Assembly (NCBI GenBank): GCA_018400715.1
Contig: JAGYME010000004.1
Location: 11,468 to 75,467, forward strand
Source of the DNA: Candidatus Bipolaricaulota bacterium
Lineage (GTDB): Bacteria > Bipolaricaulota > Bipolaricaulia > M55B111
Direction of reading: 5' to 3'
Length of the DNA stretch: 64,000 nucleotides
Shown here: piece by piece, positions 16,329-50,177 of the stretch
Layout of the letters: every line of letters begins with the position of its first letter
Numbering within the stretch: position 1 is the first letter of the stretch
Position numbers and translations under genes: made by a program
The notes under the pieces: generated by a model
What the model was told of the DNA's origin: nothing
The model's input: the letters and a program-made list of their open reading frames with translations, nothing else
Database searches by the model: none

Positions 16329-16583
16329 CTAATCATCCTCGTCTTCGTCCATTCCGGGTACGGGGTCGTAACCACCGGGGTTTAACGGGTGACAGCGCAG
16401 GATCCGTCTGATACCCAGATAAAGCCCCTTAGTTGGGCCGTGGCGCTCTATCGCTTGCTTGTTGTACTCCGAACAGGTTGGGTAAAATCTACAGGTATTG
16501 GGAAACCCTGGAGATATTGCCCTCTGGTAGAACTTAATAATTCCCAGCAAAGATGTCTTTAACAGTTTGTCTATCCTGAGCAA
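16329..16583 (-). CDS. yidD: Membrane protein insertion efficiency factor
   Basis: [35 protein letters not shown]; TTG 16583 after GAGGGGG (alternative start 16613). Confidence 0.92.
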
Positions 16584-17802
16584 ATCTATATGAACCCCCC
16601 TCAACTGATTCAAGTTTACCAGGTACGTCTGCTACGTCCAACTCTCCGACGGTAAGGTCACAACCCAGATTTCCACTGAGTGAAGGTAGGCTCCTGTGAC
16701 CCTCCGAGGTAATTAATTCTTTGATATAAAGTCCGCTCTCAGCCCAGAGATAAACTTCGTAATTCCGGTCTCCGGCCCTCCTTCCGCTGGCGCCGAACAC
16801 CCGCCTGACTCTAACGAGGTCTGATCTTCTATGGGCAACTCTGGTCGGTGTTCGTTGAAATATCCTTCCCTGAATTTTCCGTAAGCCCTCCGCGAAATCA
16901 TCTGCGCCTATCTCGACTTCTGAGTCTACGAGGGCCCGATATATCTTATCGGGTTTAGCGCTCTTGATCGCTTCGACCGCTCCCTTCGCGACGATTCTTA
17001 AGTTTCTGATCTCAAGATCTTCGGACTTTTTGGTCTCCTCCTTGAGGTCATTTAGATCAAGGCTCCGGATTCTCGGTTCTCGTAACTCCACGACGAACGG
17101 TCGCCCTCCGCCAAGGCATAGGACGTCCACGTCCTCCCTTCCCCCTCCGTGAAAGACGGACGATTCCGAGCGGCTAAGGGACCGGGCGGGCGAAGAGATT
17201 ATCTCTTCGACGGAATTGGAGTAACCCATCTCCGGCCAGTCCGTCTGTGGGATCCCCCGGGTGAGTTTTCGATATCTACCGTAGACGTAGACGGGGCGGA
17301 GTTCAATTTCGATTCGGTCGTTTTCGAAGTCCAGGAGTACGGTCAAATCAGGAGTATCGAAGTCCGCCTCGACCGTTATTCCCCTCTCCGCCAGGTTATC
17401 CCTGAAGCGTTTCCCCAGGGCGCGGTTGACGGCGTGGCTGAAGTCCTCTGCGTTCTTGAGGTTATATTTCTCCTCCAGACTTTCCTGGTTCCGTTTCACC
17501 ACTCTCCTTAACCTGGTGCCAAACAGGAAGGTGGAGAATTCGTAACCCTCAACCGTCTCTATAGTCCTTTCTACCCAGGAGTCGAGGTCCGAGCAGAGGC
17601 CAAAGCATATATTGCAACTATCGTCCTCCACGATCGGTTTATCCATGACCATCCCCGCGACGGTCCTCAGGGATTTCCCCCGCTCCCTGTTGGTTAGCCC
17701 GTGGCTTAGCTCCCCGAAGAGCCTTCCCAGGCAGCTGTCACAAATTTCGTGGTCCTCCAGGATCCTTGCTGCAGTTGAAACTACGTCGGGCTCTTTGCTC
17801 AT
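16534..17802 (-). CDS. pus10: tRNA pseudouridine(54/55) synthase, Pus10 family (archaeal type)
   Basis: N-terminal CDSCLGR..C..C, THUMP-like region, [47 protein letters not shown]; ATG 17802 after AAGGAGG. Confidence 0.9.
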
Positions 17803-17956
17803 ACCTGCCTCCTTATATAGGTCGTTATTCCGCACCGAACAGAAGATATTACTAAATATCTGGGCCCTTTTATACCGGGTTGAGTTAGCTTTGACGATCT
17901 TGAGTCGGCATTGTTTGTCCTGGGGGAGTCGGAAGGGAAACCTACGGGTTTATTGC

Positions 17957-18048
17957 TGGCGGAGGGGGTGGGATTCGAACCCACGGCTGAGTTCCCACTC
18001 AGCAATGGCTTAGCAAGCCATCGTCTTCGGCCACTCGACCACCCCTCC
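17957..18048 (-). tRNA. tRNA-Ser(GCT) with long variable arm and encoded CCA
   Basis: GGAGGGGTGGTCGAGTGG...ATGGC TT GCT AA GCCAT...GGTTCGAATCCCACCCCCTCCGCCA. Confidence 0.97.
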
Positions 18049-18094: not shown

Positions 18095-18440
18095 AGGTGG
18101 GTAGGTGGGTAATGGGTGGTGAGGTGTAGGATTCAGGATTTAGGATTTCGGGGTTAGGGTTTGGGTTGGTTGGTGAGCGGGGGTTGGTGGTGTTAGCGAG
18201 GTACCAGGTATTAGGTATCAGTTTTGAGGGGGTAGGATTTAGGAGTTGGGATTTAGGGTGAAGGGTAACGGGGAATGGGTAATGGGTTAATGGGTTAATG
18301 GGTTAATGGGTGATTTGGTTAATTGATTACTAGATACTAATTGCCAAGACCTACGACCCAAAACCCAATACCCAGGACGCACGACACTTGACGCCTGACG
18401 CTTAATCGACTGAAAACCGCGAACTAAAGAACGTTGACTA
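18095..18440. repeat. Back-to-back degenerate 7/8-bp tandem arrays (G/T-rich block, then C/A-rich block)
   Basis: taggatt caggatt taggatt..., several aatgggtt-type units near 18275-18312, then aagacct acgaccc aaaaccc aataccc...ttgacta. Confidence 0.85.
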
Positions 18441-18462
18441 CTAAACATATGTTTAGTAAAAT
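18434..18462 (+). promoter_or_regulatory. lexA promoter with a palindromic operator in the spacer
   Basis: TTGACT (18434-39)-N17-TAAAAT (18457-62); perfect palindrome TACTAAACATATGTTTAGTA at 18439-18458. Confidence 0.8.
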
Positions 18463-18477
18463 AAATTGCGATCGGAT

Positions 18478-19101
18478 ATGAACAATACTAATTTAACTGA
18501 CAGGCAGCTCTCCATACTGAAGTTTATTTGTGAGGTCATAGATGATGCATCTCGGCCTCCGACTATACGGGAGATAGGGTACGAGTTCTCTATTAGCTCG
18601 ACCAAGGGAGTGGCCGACCACCTGGACGCGCTCGAGAGGAAGGGGTGGATAGAGAGGGAACCGGGTCAGGCTAGGGGTATAAAGCCGGTCAGGGAGAAGA
18701 CGGAGAAGCTTTTTGGGGCAAGCACGGGTCTGCCTGTAGTCGGTTCCGTTGTAGCTGGAGGTCCGACCCTGGCCAGGGAAAACCTGGAGGGTTTGCTCAA
18801 TCTGGACGACCTATTTCCCAATAACGACGATCTGTTTGCCCTCAGGGTTAGAGGAGATTCCATGACCGGGGCCGGCATCTACAGGGGCGACATAGTGGTC
18901 GTAAGACAGCAGTGGCAGGCCGACGTTGGAGACGTAGTAGTGGCTATAGTTGACGACGAGAAGGGTACTGTAAAAAAGCTCTCCAAGGTAGGTGAAGAGA
19001 TTCACCTGAAGCCGGCGAACCCAAACTACGACACGATCGTTAAGGAGCCGAGCCGAGTGGAGATAAGGGGTAAGGTAGTTGGTGTAATTAGGAAGATGTA
19101 A
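18478..19101 (+). CDS. lexA: SOS repressor LexA
   Basis: LTDRQ..PPTIREIG..HLDALERKGWI; Ala-Gly cleavage site (VAGGP); Ser (GDSM) and Lys (TVKK) dyad. Confidence 0.95.
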   Translation: MNNTNLTDRQLSILKFICEVIDDASRPPTIREIGYEFSISSTKGVADHLDALERKGWIEREPGQARGIKPVREKTEKLFGASTGLPVVGSVVAGGPTLARENLEGLLNLDDLFPNNDDLFALRVRGDSMTGAGIYRGDIVVVRQQWQADVGDVVVAIVDDEKGTVKKLSKVGEEIHLKPANPNYDTIVKEPSRVEIRGKVVGVIRKM

Positions 19102-19143: not shown

Positions 19144-19404
19144 ATGTATAAGGATATCAATCAATCGATAAAAGTTGGGGTCAAATTCTCCCGGGGGCGG
19201 GTTGAGCCCGTCTGGTTCTTCTGGCAGCGGAGAAAACACGACGTAGACGAGGTCAACCTGTACCATCGGACCTTTAAGGGTGAAGCGCCCATACACCACT
19301 TTTCCGTTACGGTGGGAGGGGACGTCTTTCAGCTCTCTTTTGATGGCAAGAAACTTCGATGGAAGCTGGACAAGATCTGGGTCTCGGGTGACTACGACCG
19401 ATGA
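19144..19404 (+). CDS. Small beta-rich hypothetical protein between lexA and the Y-family polymerase
   Basis: 86-aa ORF with an ATGA overlap to dinB; aromatic beta pattern PVWFFWQRRKHDV..HHFSV..FQLSFD..LRWKL. Confidence 0.75.
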   Translation: MYKDINQSIKVGVKFSRGRVEPVWFFWQRRKHDVDEVNLYHRTFKGEAPIHHFSVTVGGDVFQLSFDGKKLRWKLDKIWVSGDYDR

Positions 19405-20630
19405 AACGAGTGATATTTCACGTTGATATGGATTCGTATTTCGCTTCAGTGGAACAACAGGCAAATCCCAGACTGCGGGGGAAACCGATAGTCGTCACCG
19501 GTAGACCGACGATTAGGTCAATAGTAGCTGCTGCCTCCAGGGAGGCGAAGGAGGCAGGTGTGAAGTCAGCTATGCCCACCTGGAAGGCGGAAAAATTGTG
19601 TCCTGACATAACTCTTGTGCCGGGAGATCCAGATAAATACGAGTGGGTAACCAACAACTTCTTCTCGATATTGAGGTCCTACAGTTCCAGGCTGGAACCG
19701 TTTGGTGTCGATGAGGCCTTCTTGGACCTAACGCCCTCCGGCCTCGACCTCAGATCGCCAGAGAGGATAGCGGGGGAGATTAAACGCAGGGTAAGCGACC
19801 GTCTGGGCAACTGGATTACCTGTTCGATTGGCATCGCCCGTAATAAACTCCTGGCAAAGCTCGCCTCGGACATGGACAAGCCGGACGGTGTGACTCTCAT
19901 CGGAGACGGAGACGTCGATGCCGTATTAAGGGATACCCCCTTGACCGATCTGTGCGGCATTGGCACAAGAATCGAGAGCAGGCTCAACCGCATGGGGATA
20001 AGTTCTATCGCCGAACTAGGAGAATATCCGGAGAAGGAGTTAAGGAGGGAATTTGGGGTGATCGGAGCTAAGCTAAAGTTAATGGGGCAGGGGAAGGACC
20101 CGAGTCCAGTCCTCCCCGCCGGATACTCGGAGGAGGTCAAATCTGTGGGCCACTCCTTAAGTCTGCCGGATTACAAGAGGACGCCCAGGAAAGCCATGCC
20201 AATTCTGTTTAAGCTGGCCCAGCAGGTAGGTTACAGGTTGAGAAAGCGGGACCTTGCTGCCAGCACGATAAAGCTGTACGTCAGGGGCGCCGAGTATAAC
20301 ATAACAGGTAAACAGATTACGTTGGGCCGACACGTTGACGACGGCAACGAGATCTATTCGGCCTGCCTCAGGATTAAGGAAAAGATTGGGTTCCCATCTA
20401 CCCCGACCATGGTCGGGGTGCGGGCTTCAAATCTGCGGGACAGAAATACCCTTTCGCAACCGATCTTGCCGAAATGGAGAAAGCGGGAGGAGTTGCTGGA
20501 CGTCATGGACTCGGTAAACGAAGAATACGGGGAAGAGACCCTTTACTTTGCAGCACAGAGTGGATCGGAGGACCTCCTTCCGTCCGTTGGAGAGTTCAGG
20601 CGGCCGGGTGATCTGGGTCCGGAAAAATGA
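19401..20630 (+). CDS. dinB: Y-family DNA polymerase (Pol IV/DinB-like)
   Basis: FHVDMDSYFASVEQ, DEAFLD, SIGIARNKLLAKLASDMDKPDG; C-terminal LLDVMDSVNEEYG. Confidence 0.93.
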   Translation: MKRVIFHVDMDSYFASVEQQANPRLRGKPIVVTGRPTIRSIVAAASREAKEAGVKSAMPTWKAEKLCPDITLVPGDPDKYEWVTNNFFSILRSYSSRLEPFGVDEAFLDLTPSGLDLRSPERIAGEIKRRVSDRLGNWITCSIGIARNKLLAKLASDMDKPDGVTLIGDGDVDAVLRDTPLTDLCGIGTRIESRLNRMGISSIAELGEYPEKELRREFGVIGAKLKLMGQGKDPSPVLPAGYSEEVKSVGHSLSLPDYKRTPRKAMPILFKLAQQVGYRLRKRDLAASTIKLYVRGAEYNITGKQITLGRHVDDGNEIYSACLRIKEKIGFPSTPTMVGVRASNLRDRNTLSQPILPKWRKREELLDVMDSVNEEYGEETLYFAAQSGSEDLLPSVGEFRRPGDLGPEK

Positions 20631-47061: not shown

Positions 47062-48084
47062 ATGGACTTCGAAGAAGATAACGAAAGAGCGGTGAGTCCG
47101 GAAAGGAAATCGGAGGACACGGGCTTGAACAACCTTCGGCCCAAAAGCCTTGATGACTTCATCGGTCAAGAGGACGTTAAACAGCGACTCTCAATTTTAC
47201 TTGAAGCTGCGCTGAATCGAGGGGGGACCGTTGACCATATATTGTTTCACGGTCCTCCGGGACTGGGAAAGACGACCCTTGCCCACATAGTAGCCTATGA
47301 AATGGGGGTAAATATTAAGACTACTTCCGGTCCCGCAATCGACAAACCGGGAGATCTGGCAGCGATAGTCAGCAACTTGACCCCCGGAGACATCCTCTTT
47401 ATTGACGAGATACACCGTCTGAGGCGAAACGTCGAGGAGGTTCTCTACCCGGCGATGGAGGACTTCAAAATCGATATAGTAATCGGAGAGGGACCTAGCG
47501 CCCAGTCGATCAGGCTGGACGTCCCCCCATTTACCCTGATCGGAGCGACTACGAGGACCGGGTTGCTTACCTCGCCCCTGAGGGATCGCTTCGAAGTCGT
47601 GCTCCACCTCGAATTTTACGACGTCCCGGCGATCGAGAAGATAGTCTTGAGGGGCGCTAACCTACTGGACGTTGAGATTAACGATGGCAGGGGTGGAGCC
47701 AATGAGATCGCCCGGCGGTCACGGGGAACGCCGAGAATTGCCAACAGGTTGTTAAAAAGGACAAGAGATTATGCTGAGGTCCGTGCGGACGGATATATCG
47801 ACCGAGAGGTTGCCAGAGAAGCGCTGGAGATGCTTGGTATCGACGGAAGCGGGCTGGACAAACTGGACCGGCGAATATTGGAGACCATTACCGAGAACTT
47901 CGACGGCGGGCCGGTGGGGCTGGATACCATATCCGCTGCCCTGTCCGAGCAAAAAGACACGATCTCCGAGGTATACGAGCCTTACCTGTTGACGAAGGGA
48001 TTTATCGAACGGACCAGCCAGGGAAGGAAAATCACCAAAAAAGGTCTCGAACACCTGGGTTATGACGACAACAGGCTGCTTTGA
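47062..48084 (+). CDS. ruvB: Holliday junction helicase
   Basis: [53 protein letters not shown]. Confidence 0.98.
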
Positions 48085-48182: not shown

Positions 48183-50177
48183 ATGGGCAAAGAAAATTTT
48201 ATTCTCGAAACTGACAAGGAACCCAAAGGGGACCAGCCGGAAGCTATCTCCCAGCTGACTAGAGGGGTGGAGAAAGGGATGAAGCACCAGACCCTCCTGG
48301 GAGCCACAGGCACCGGCAAGACCTTTTCCATGGCAAACGTGATCGAAAACGTCCAAAAACCGACTCTTGTAATTGCCCACAACAAGACCCTTACCGCGCA
48401 ACTGTGGAACGAGTTCAACGAACTCTTCCCCCACAACGCCGTTCATTATTTTGTCTCCTACTACGATTATTACCAGCCCGAGGCGTACGTTCCGGAAACT
48501 GACACCTATATCGAGAAGGATTCTTCGATAAACGATGAGATAGACAGGTTAAGGCATCGCGCGACCTCTGCCCTGTTTGAAAGGGAAGACGTAATTATTG
48601 TTGCCAGCGTCTCCTGTATTTACGGCCTCGGCTCCCCGAGCGCGTACGAGGACATGGCCCGGCCACTCGCCCTGGAAGCCAAGCTGGACAGGGATGACCT
48701 CCTTGGGAGCCTGGTTGACCTGCAGTACACGAGAAACGACGTTAACCCCACCCGCGGAACCTTCAGGGTTCGGGGCGATACTATAGAGATCGTCCCCATA
48801 TACGGAGAGGAGACGATCCGGGTCGAGTTCTTTGGGAACGTGATTGACAGGATTACGCTGGTGGACTCCTTGACCGGAAGGAAGATCAAGGAGAAGGAAA
48901 AGGTCGTAATCTACCCGGCCACGCACTTCATTACCTCTAAGGCTCGCCTCGACAAGACTATCGAAGCCATAAAGGAGGAGCTCGAAGAGAGGCTTGAACT
49001 CTGCAGAAAGAATGGCAAACTGCTCGAGGCTCAGAGACTGGAACAGAGAACTAAATACGACCTGGAGATGATGGAGGAACTGGGATACTGCAAGGGAATC
49101 GAAAACTATTCCCGGTACCTGACCGACAGGGACCCGGGCGAACCACCTTATACTTTGATTGACTACTTTCCGGACGACTTCTTAATAATAATTGACGAAT
49201 CCCATCAAACTATTCCCCAGATAGGCGGTATGTACAACGGAGATAGGTCGAGGAAGGAGACGCTCGTAGAACACGGCTACAGGTTGCCATCTGCCCTGGA
49301 TAACCGCCCGTTGAAGTTTAACGAGTTCGAGGACCGGATAAACCAGGTTATCTATACTTCAGCCACGCCCGGCCCGTATGAGTACGAACACAGCGAGCAG
49401 GTCGTGGAGCAGATAATTAGGCCGACAGGTCTGGTTGATCCCCAGGTGGAGGTCCGACCAATAGAAAATCAGGTTGATGACCTGCTGAACGAGATAGACG
49501 TCGTGACGGGGCGTGACGAGAGGGTGCTGGTGACGACACTCACGAAAAAGATGGCCGAGGAACTCTCCGACTACTTTCTCGAGGTCGGAGTAAAGGCCAG
49601 ATACCTGCACTCCGAAATTGACACCCTGGAGCGCGTGAAGATATTGAGGGAGTTGAGACAGGGCAAGTTCAACGTCCTCGTGGGGATTAACCTGTTGCGG
49701 GAGGGTCTCGATTTACCGGAAACGTCTCTCGTAGCGATATTGGACGCGGATAAGGAGGGTTTTCTCCGGTCCGACACCTCTCTCATTCAAACGATGGGGA
49801 GGGCAGCACGGAACGTTAGCGGCAAAGTTATTCTCTACGCAGACAGGATGACTGATTCCATGAGGAGGGCGATAGACGAGACTAACCGGCGTCGGGAGAT
49901 ACAAATTGCCTACAACGAGGAACACGATATCGAACCGGAGACGATCAAGAAAGAGATAACCGACATCGCGCAGTTGATTGAGCCCGACTCTACCGAAGAG
50001 GTGCCGATCTACGAGCAGAGCGAAGTCCAAGAGATGAGTGAGGATCAGATCTACGACCTGGTACAAAGGCTCGAAGAATCAATGAAAGAGGCCGCTGAAA
50101 GACTCGAGTTTGAGAAAGCGGCGGCTTATCGAGACGAGATCGAGGAGCTAAAATCGGAGTTGGTCCGCCTTAATTAG
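48183..50177 (+). CDS. uvrB: Excinuclease ABC subunit B
   Basis: [41 protein letters not shown]-terminal UVR domain. Confidence 0.99.

Follow-up and report, generated by a model that had tools for sequence, protein, structure and literature searches.

A candidate LexA operator with an AAAC-N4-GTTT core in the lexA promoter of a Bipolaricaulota bacterium

Which regulator, if any, recognizes the perfect palindrome that lies in the promoter of the lexA gene of Candidatus Bipolaricaulota bacterium, and how many genes does that regulator control? The window analyzed here is a stretch of 64,000 nucleotides, to which all coordinates given without a contig name refer. It is part of contig C111 of a Bipolaricaulota metagenome-assembled genome (MAG; G000 in this work) that comprises 176 contigs and 2.19 Mb and has a completeness of 87.9%, so that further copies of the box may be missing from it. 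A literature search returned no study of LexA in Bipolaricaulota (OP1/Acetothermia). The sequence and position of the dyad, its conservation, its phyletic co-occurrence with LexA, and its recurrence at genes of the same cassette all point to TACTAAAC-N4-GTTTAGTA being the predicted operator of the LexA of this lineage, a reading to which we assign a probability of about 0.87. Judging from the sequences, the predicted operator is real and apparently undescribed, a modest, one-letter variant of a known box, and the operon, too, is of a known type.

The sequence TACTAAACATATGTTTAGTA at positions 18439 to 18458 is its own reverse complement, with two 10-nt arms that are 100% complementary and joined without a gap. 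Read as a predicted LexA operator, which has no strand of its own, the same 20 bp form TACTAAAC-ATAT-GTTTAGTA, two 8-bp arms around a 4-bp center. They lie in a promoter at positions 18434 to 18462, TTGACT-ACTAAACATATGTTTAG-TAAAAT, with a 17-bp spacer, which the promoter scan returns as the top sigma-70-like site of the region (10 of 12 positions matched). Both hexamers are on the plus strand, the -35 hexamer TTGACT at 18434 to 18439 and the -10 hexamer TAAAAT at 18457 to 18462; the palindrome takes in the last T of the former and shares its own last two bases with the start of the latter. The sequence-only reading, which described a perfect 20-bp palindrome filling the spacer between TTGACT and TAAAAT, is exact on this point. 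As is typical of autoregulatory LexA operators, the dyad thus overlaps, in the promoter of lexA itself, the elements contacted by RNA polymerase.

The length of the palindrome says little about its function. Of 200 windows of 64 kb simulated with a first-order Markov model, 13 (~6%) contain perfect palindromes with arms of at least 10 nt, and the 2.19-Mb genome contains 7 palindromes of such arm length. A second perfect 20-bp palindrome, ACCCCGACCATGGTCGGGGT, is found at positions 20400 to 20419 within the coding sequence of the Y-family polymerase, in the region encoding PTPTMVGV, and is probably due to chance or driven by codon choice. Since simulated windows reach such arm lengths and another 20-bp palindrome lies in coding DNA, palindrome length was rejected as evidence, and the case for an operator rests on position and comparative data. 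An exact TAAAC-N4-GTTTA core is found at one place only in the 2.19-Mb assembly, whereas with one mismatch allowed the window alone contains 3 matches vs 1.6 expected. In a softened position weight matrix (PWM), the lexA site scores 34.9 bits and the next-best upstream site in the genome 15.7 bits, with the proviso that this matrix was derived from lexA promoters only and is over-specific, weak sites being inseparable from the background.

The DNA upstream of the promoter has several features of its own. Between a tRNA-Ser gene (17957 to 18048, minus strand) and the lexA promoter, positions 18095 to 18330 consist of G/T-rich tandem units of 7 to 8 nt (GGGTTAAT, GGATTTA, and similar ones), which are not conserved in the lexA upstream regions of the relatives. 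Further upstream, at 16534 to 17835 on the minus strand, this bacterium encodes an archaeal-type Pus10 pseudouridine synthase (Pfam domains Pus10_C and Pus10_THUMP_arc).

The promoter precedes three genes on the plus strand. The first, lexA (18478 to 19101), encodes a 207-aa protein with the LexA_DNA_bind (Pfam ID PF01726) and Peptidase_S24 (PF00717) domains, which scores 198 bits against the NCBIfam equivalog TIGR00498 (cut-off, 111). This protein combines the N-terminal winged-helix domain and C-terminal S24 peptidase domain of a LexA repressor with a cleavage site (Ala93-Gly94), a nucleophile (Ser128), and a Lys166 that are all invariant in an alignment with 13 relatives; its nearest solved structure is that of Thermotoga maritima LexA (3K2Z). 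The second gene (19144 to 19404) encodes a conserved 86-aa protein, which has no match in Pfam or NCBIfam but keeps its place relative to lexA and the polymerase gene: it is found between these two genes in the loci of 14 relatives from families f1 and f3 (62 to 93% identity), and weaker homologs adjoin lexA in loci of Omnitrophota and Clostridia. The third gene (19401 to 20630) codes for a Y-family (DinB-like) translesion DNA polymerase that matches the Pfam families IMS, IMS_C, and IMS_HHH and the NCBIfam models of DNA polymerase IV. The first codon of this gene overlaps the stop codon of the 86-aa gene, and because the next gene is convergent, the operon ends with the polymerase. The assembly contains a single copy of each of the three genes. 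It also encodes the co-protease RecA (G000:C155:41686-42471, 394 bits to PF00154).

The ATG of lexA lies 15 nt past the -10 hexamer (~11 nt in genus g2) and is not preceded by a Shine-Dalgarno sequence, indicating that the lexA mRNA is probably near-leaderless. With transcription predicted to start at about 18469 to 18471, its leader would have 7 to 9 nt. In other phyla, too, lexA begins 5 to 15 nt past the predicted -10 hexamer without a Shine-Dalgarno sequence (loci L027, L038, L043, L044, L046, and L054), which suggests that leaderless or near-leaderless lexA mRNAs might be widespread.

LexA homologs are found in 24 of the 41 relatives. Conservation of the site could be followed in the 17 genomes for which upstream DNA is available, representing three genera of family f1 and family f3; their LexA proteins are 59 to 83% identical to that of the window. 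The dyad is present in the lexA promoter of all 17, as ACTAAAC-N4-GTTTAGT in 16 of them and as GCTATAC-N4-GTTTAGT in G004, and TTGNNN at -35 and TAnnAT at the -10 offset are retained as well. When the 17 sequences are anchored on the dyad and the information content is calculated per column (maximum, 2 bits), the 14 arm positions average 1.95 bits, the four central positions 1.38 bits, and the -35 hexamer 1.36 bits, compared to a mean of 0.23 bits for the 39 columns upstream of the -35 hexamer and 0.79 bits for the 39 columns that start 6 nt past the dyad and include the early coding region. The kinship of the 17 genomes inflates the apparent conservation, although their flanks have fully diverged and can no longer be aligned; the box has been kept ahead of the lexA orthologs while the surrounding DNA changed. 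Variation within the dyad is restricted to its center, which reads ATAT, AAAT, ATAA, AAAA, ATAC, or ATCA, so the conserved unit is 8+4+8. The full 20-bp perfect palindrome is peculiar to the genome of the window, and most sites of the relatives are not fully palindromic. Constant arms around a free center are the footprint that would be expected of a dimeric DNA-binding protein. Conservation ahead of orthologous lexA genes, on which the sequence-only reading had staked its proposal of an SOS box, is thus borne out.

The phyletic distribution of the box follows that of the protein. With at most one mismatch, ACTAAAC-N4-GTTTAGT is found in 18 of the 184 genomes of the phylum, namely, in 16 of the 19 members of f1, in G020 from f3, and in one member of f4; a reversed control pattern yields ~0.2 matches per genome. 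The f4 match has one mismatch, lies within a gene, and is a probable chance occurrence. The f1 genomes that lack a lexA match (G006, G016, and G018) contain no box, and neither, apart from that single f4 match, do f4 and f6, two families in which the 15 genomes sampled yielded no LexA match. The box is therefore found essentially only in genomes that carry the same type of LexA. Its lineage specificity, likewise proposed from the sequence, holds for f1 and f3, the other families having either no LexA and no box or a different dyad at the same place.

Two further copies of the box are found in promoters of the same architecture, with a 17-bp spacer and different hexamers. Contig C257 of G007 contains TTGATA-ACTAAACACGTGTTTAG-TAAACT located 13 nt ahead of the ATG of an additional polymerase gene of the Y family, whose product is 73% identical to the polymerase of the lexA operon of that genome; the two genes have no match at the nucleotide level, and, as G007 is a MAG, the contig could stem from a co-binned relative. 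Contig C104 of G004 contains TTGACA-ACTAAACAAATGATTAG-TATGCT ahead of a stand-alone homolog of the 86-aa gene (63% identical), the very gene that is absent from the lexA-polymerase operon of G004. In both promoters, the T after the spacer is at once the last base of the arm and the first base of the -10 hexamer. The box thus recurs at promoters of other genes of the DNA damage response.

These two copies stand out by their gene context rather than by their number. The extra one-mismatch matches in the family are about as frequent as expected from the reversed control, and the family-wide one-mismatch search with the 12-base pattern was uninformative for the same reason; only these two have a meaningful gene context. 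By a rough estimate rather than a computation, the chance of falling directly ahead of a cassette gene is ~1 in 1,000 per match, given one or two such genes per genome of ~2,000 genes, and two of the six extra matches doing so would not be a matter of chance. The remaining matches were not taken as sites. The exact matches in G015:C40, which has no gene context and corresponds to no Rfam family, and in G001:C52, located 143 bp from a trpE/pabB-like gene, are probably due to chance. One-mismatch matches were set aside at the start of an ABC permease gene (G012:C67), at another gene start (G002:C48), and within genes (G020:C79 and G132:C116). In the genome of the window, matches at 9 to 11 of the 12 positions ahead of pdxS-, nusA-, folE-, and nitroreductase-like genes look like chance occurrences.

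Among known LexA boxes, the dyad most resembles the Cheo box, CGAAC-N4-GTTCG, of Bacillus subtilis, Mycobacterium, and Dehalococcoides. The optimal box of B. subtilis is CGAACATATGTTCG. The Cheo box and the site of the window, TAAACATATGTTTA, have in common a 4-bp center that is rich in A/T and an invariant inner AC...GT, and the Cheo box, too, occupies the lexA promoter, where a canonical LexA (winged-helix and S24 peptidase domains) binds it. In lexA loci from Actinomycetota, Chloroflexota, and Gemmatimonadota, CGAAC/TGAAC-N4-GTTCG/A is found at the same place. In contrast to the Cheo box, however, the site of the window has A/T instead of G/C as the outer core base (AAAC/GTTT), its conserved arms are three bases longer (ACT...AGT), and recA appears not to be among its targets; the LexA protein itself differs from the Cheo type in having S-T-K-G-V-x-D-H-L as helix 3. 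The GAAC/GTTC arms that define the Cheo box in the strict sense are replaced by AAAC/GTTT in 16 of the 17 genomes and by ATAC/GTTT in G004. Going by its letters, the box is best described as a variant of GAAC-N4-GTTC and not a member of that class in the strict sense, in agreement with the initial view of the site as GAAC-N4-GTTC geometry with changed outer bases. A single classical-looking Cheo box, CAGAACAAAAGTTCAG, is found at G000:C99:12566-12581, 53 bp ahead of a nitroreductase-like gene, probably by chance.

Sister families within the phylum have a different dyad at the same place. The lexA promoters of f5 and f7 contain GCATAC-N4-GTATGC in the spacer, which shares with the box of the window its position, its 4-bp center, and its targets (lexA and the combination of a small open reading frame [ORF] with a Y-family polymerase gene) but has T for A at the second core base and GC for CT in the flank; the accompanying helix 3 differs as well. 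No published description of this dyad was found. A mixed dyad, GCGAAC-N4-GTATGC, is found in two records assigned to Bipolaricaulota/Fraserbacteria (L028 and L029), and f8 has AAAC-GCTT-GTTC. A phylum-wide search for GCATAC-N4-GTATGC was noisy at one mismatch, with similar counts for the control, and sites were therefore selected by an A/T-rich center and a matching promoter context. One of them, from G037 (f7), is CCATACATTTGTATGC, flanked by the hexamers TTGCAT and TATACT; the genes behind this promoter are a 109-aa ORF and a Y-family polymerase gene whose product matches the polymerase of the window at an E value of 7e-59. Two lineages thus have two dyads at the same targets, lexA and the polymerase cassette, which is what one would predict for dyads that each serve as operator for the LexA of their own lineage. 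In two genera of f5, GCATAC-TTTT-[AG]TATG[CT] is also found in a TTGACA/TATACT promoter ahead of orthologous genes for an ABC transporter ATPase (L197 in G025:C22 and L200 in G040:C17; site at 1501 to 1516 in each), which is a possible non-repair target of LexA.

The lexA promoters of many phyla fit the same frame, TTGACA-[xxxxAC-N4-GTxxxx]-TAtAAT with the ATG close behind, and across lexA loci the letters of the dyad and helix 3 of LexA change together. Thus, the CTAAAC dyad goes with S-T-K-G-V-x-D-H-L in the LexA type described here, GCATAC with S-V-R-S-V-Q-T-H-L or S-P-A-S-V-x-x-H-L, CGAAC with S-S-S-T-V-H-x-H-L in Actinomycetota, and CCACAC with S-T-G-T-V-R-D-Y-L in Omnitrophota, where the lexA spacer reads CCACAC-N4-GTGTGG. 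Other lexA spacers contain ACTATAC-N4-GTGTAGT in Nitrospirae, AGTAGAC-N4-GTCTAGT in Armatimonadota, CTCAAC-N4-GTTGAG in Rokubacteria, and CTGTGC-N4-GCACAG in some Chloroflexota. These dyads and that of Omnitrophota, from loci L044, L062, L068, L069/L073/L074, and L078/L096, fit the frame xxxxAC/GC-N4-GT/GCxxxx, and each is accompanied by its own helix 3. Within the phylum, at least two and probably three predicted LexA specificities (AAAC, ATAC, and the AAAC/GTTC hybrid) appear to differ by single symmetric base changes.

The regulon of this LexA appears to be limited to the translesion cassette and to include neither recA nor the excision repair genes. The regions upstream of ruvB (47062 to 48084) and uvrB (48183 to 50177) contain no box, their best PWM scores being approximately -3 bits vs 34.9 at lexA, and those of uvrA, uvrB, ruvB, recA, radA, dnaE, and sbcD rank 545th to 1769th of 2067 in the PWM search and have no box either. 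In G000:C155, recA comes after ndk, from which it is separated by a gap of ~75 bp that contains no dyad, and no site of at least 12 bits is found within 1.5 kb of recA in 15 genomes of the family. The sequence-only reading had found no match by eye upstream of ruvB or uvrB and had suggested a small regulon, and in both respects the comparison sides with it, the two extra copies in a matching promoter context being found at genes of the translesion cassette; its expectation that a genome scan would recover recA failed in the genome of the window and in the 15 relatives alike. The best-supported view is that the regulon consists of a single operon in this genome and, in the relatives, of the same cassette genes where these have split off.

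Alternatively, the dyad might be a LexA operator that belongs to a larger, normal SOS regulon, whose further members (recA, uvr, and others) either have degenerate sites or half-sites that escape a strict pattern or lie in the 12% of the genome that the assembly lacks. In other bacteria, recA is usually a member of the LexA regulon and weak sites are part of it (PMC8565304, PMC7739468), an over-specific matrix and an incomplete MAG would both tend to hide such members, and a 9-of-12 match does overlap the start of an sbcD-like gene (G000:C1:117071). However, the low ranks of the seven repair and replication genes, the bare ndk-recA gap, the lack of strong sites near recA in 15 genomes of the family, and the fact that both extra boxes in a matching promoter context precede cassette genes all make a larger regulon unlikely, though one to be kept in mind. 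There is also a precedent for a restricted one. In the "GeoPolY-like" group of Geobacter, the genes cotranscribed with lexA are a small one of the ImuB-C type and one for an active Y-family polymerase (PMC6511836), and LexA autoregulates this operon and, according to the account of Jara et al. (2003) given in PMC6511836, does not bind the recA promoter. The lexA-(imuB-C)-polY operons of Geobacter sulfurreducens have a layout like that of the lexA/86-aa gene/Y-family polymerase operon of the window. However, the box of Geobacter is GGTT-N10-AACC (PMC8565304), a long palindrome that has no relation to the box of the window in sequence or spacing, and Geobacter has two lexA copies vs one in the genome of the window.

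A different regulator, with LexA not binding the dyad at all, is highly improbable. One type of candidate would be a protein like PsrA, a TetR family regulator of Pseudomonas, whose box, G/CAAAC-N(2-4)-GTTTG/C (PMC13104628), has the same core letters; in the literature, AAAC-N4-GTTT was found only as a PsrA-type box. The regulator family, the organisms, and the targets are, however, unrelated, and the likeness to PsrA is a coincidence of letters, not homology. Moreover, the operon encodes no other DNA-binding protein, whereas across the 184 genomes the box tracks both the presence of LexA and its helix 3 type. It is found at genes of the translesion polymerase cassette, and no LexA targets are conserved more widely than these (PMC7739468); its place in the spacer of the lexA promoter is one at which dyads are seen in many phyla.

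The notion that the palindrome is no repressor site and either arose by chance or belongs to the structure of a strong promoter (as conserved spacer DNA, a cruciform, or a hairpin), to which the ~6% of simulated windows with such palindromes and the coding palindrome at 20400 to 20419 might lend color, is extremely improbable, given that conservation of the arms exceeds that of the -35 hexamer while the center varies freely, that the dyad recurs at two other promoters with different -35 and -10 hexamers, and that sister families have changed both arms symmetrically, from AAAC/GTTT to ATAC/GTAT. Transcription is predicted to start downstream of the dyad, and there is no run of T residues behind it, so the dyad is neither a terminator nor an RNA hairpin.

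With the dyad read as the operator of LexA, the following switch can be proposed. At the only promoter of the operon, a dimer of LexA would place one winged-helix domain on each arm, spanning the spacer and reaching over both the -35 and the -10 hexamer, and, as its position suggests, would exclude RNA polymerase. Upon DNA damage, RecA filaments on single-stranded DNA would trigger self-cleavage of LexA, a step consistent with the presence of recA and with the intact cleavage site and Ser/Lys dyad of LexA. Induction of the promoter would then yield the polymerase for translesion synthesis together with its small partner, as well as new LexA, which would reset the switch. The box itself would derive from a Cheo-type GAAC-N4-GTTC, with A for the outer G and an extended CTA/TAG flank.

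If so, the box would add another LexA motif for an uncultured phylum, one in which the change is small and traceable: the outer G is replaced by A here and by T in the sister families, with matching changes in helix 3. LexA is unusual among bacterial regulators in that its binding motif has changed often, with 17 motifs counted in 2021 (PMC8565304), and the LexA variants of Bipolaricaulota would provide a natural series for reading the recognition code of the winged helix. That the LexA of this family is a dedicated switch of the cassette and not a global SOS regulator and, at the same time, that the two, probably three, LexA specificities of the phylum track helix 3 is a compound proposal that we regard as an even bet. 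The understanding of how LexA works remains unchanged by these results. In practical terms, the motif may be used for annotating damage-inducible genes in such MAGs. For the biology of this lineage, it would represent a further example of an SOS system reduced to its most conserved function, the control of an error-prone polymerase.
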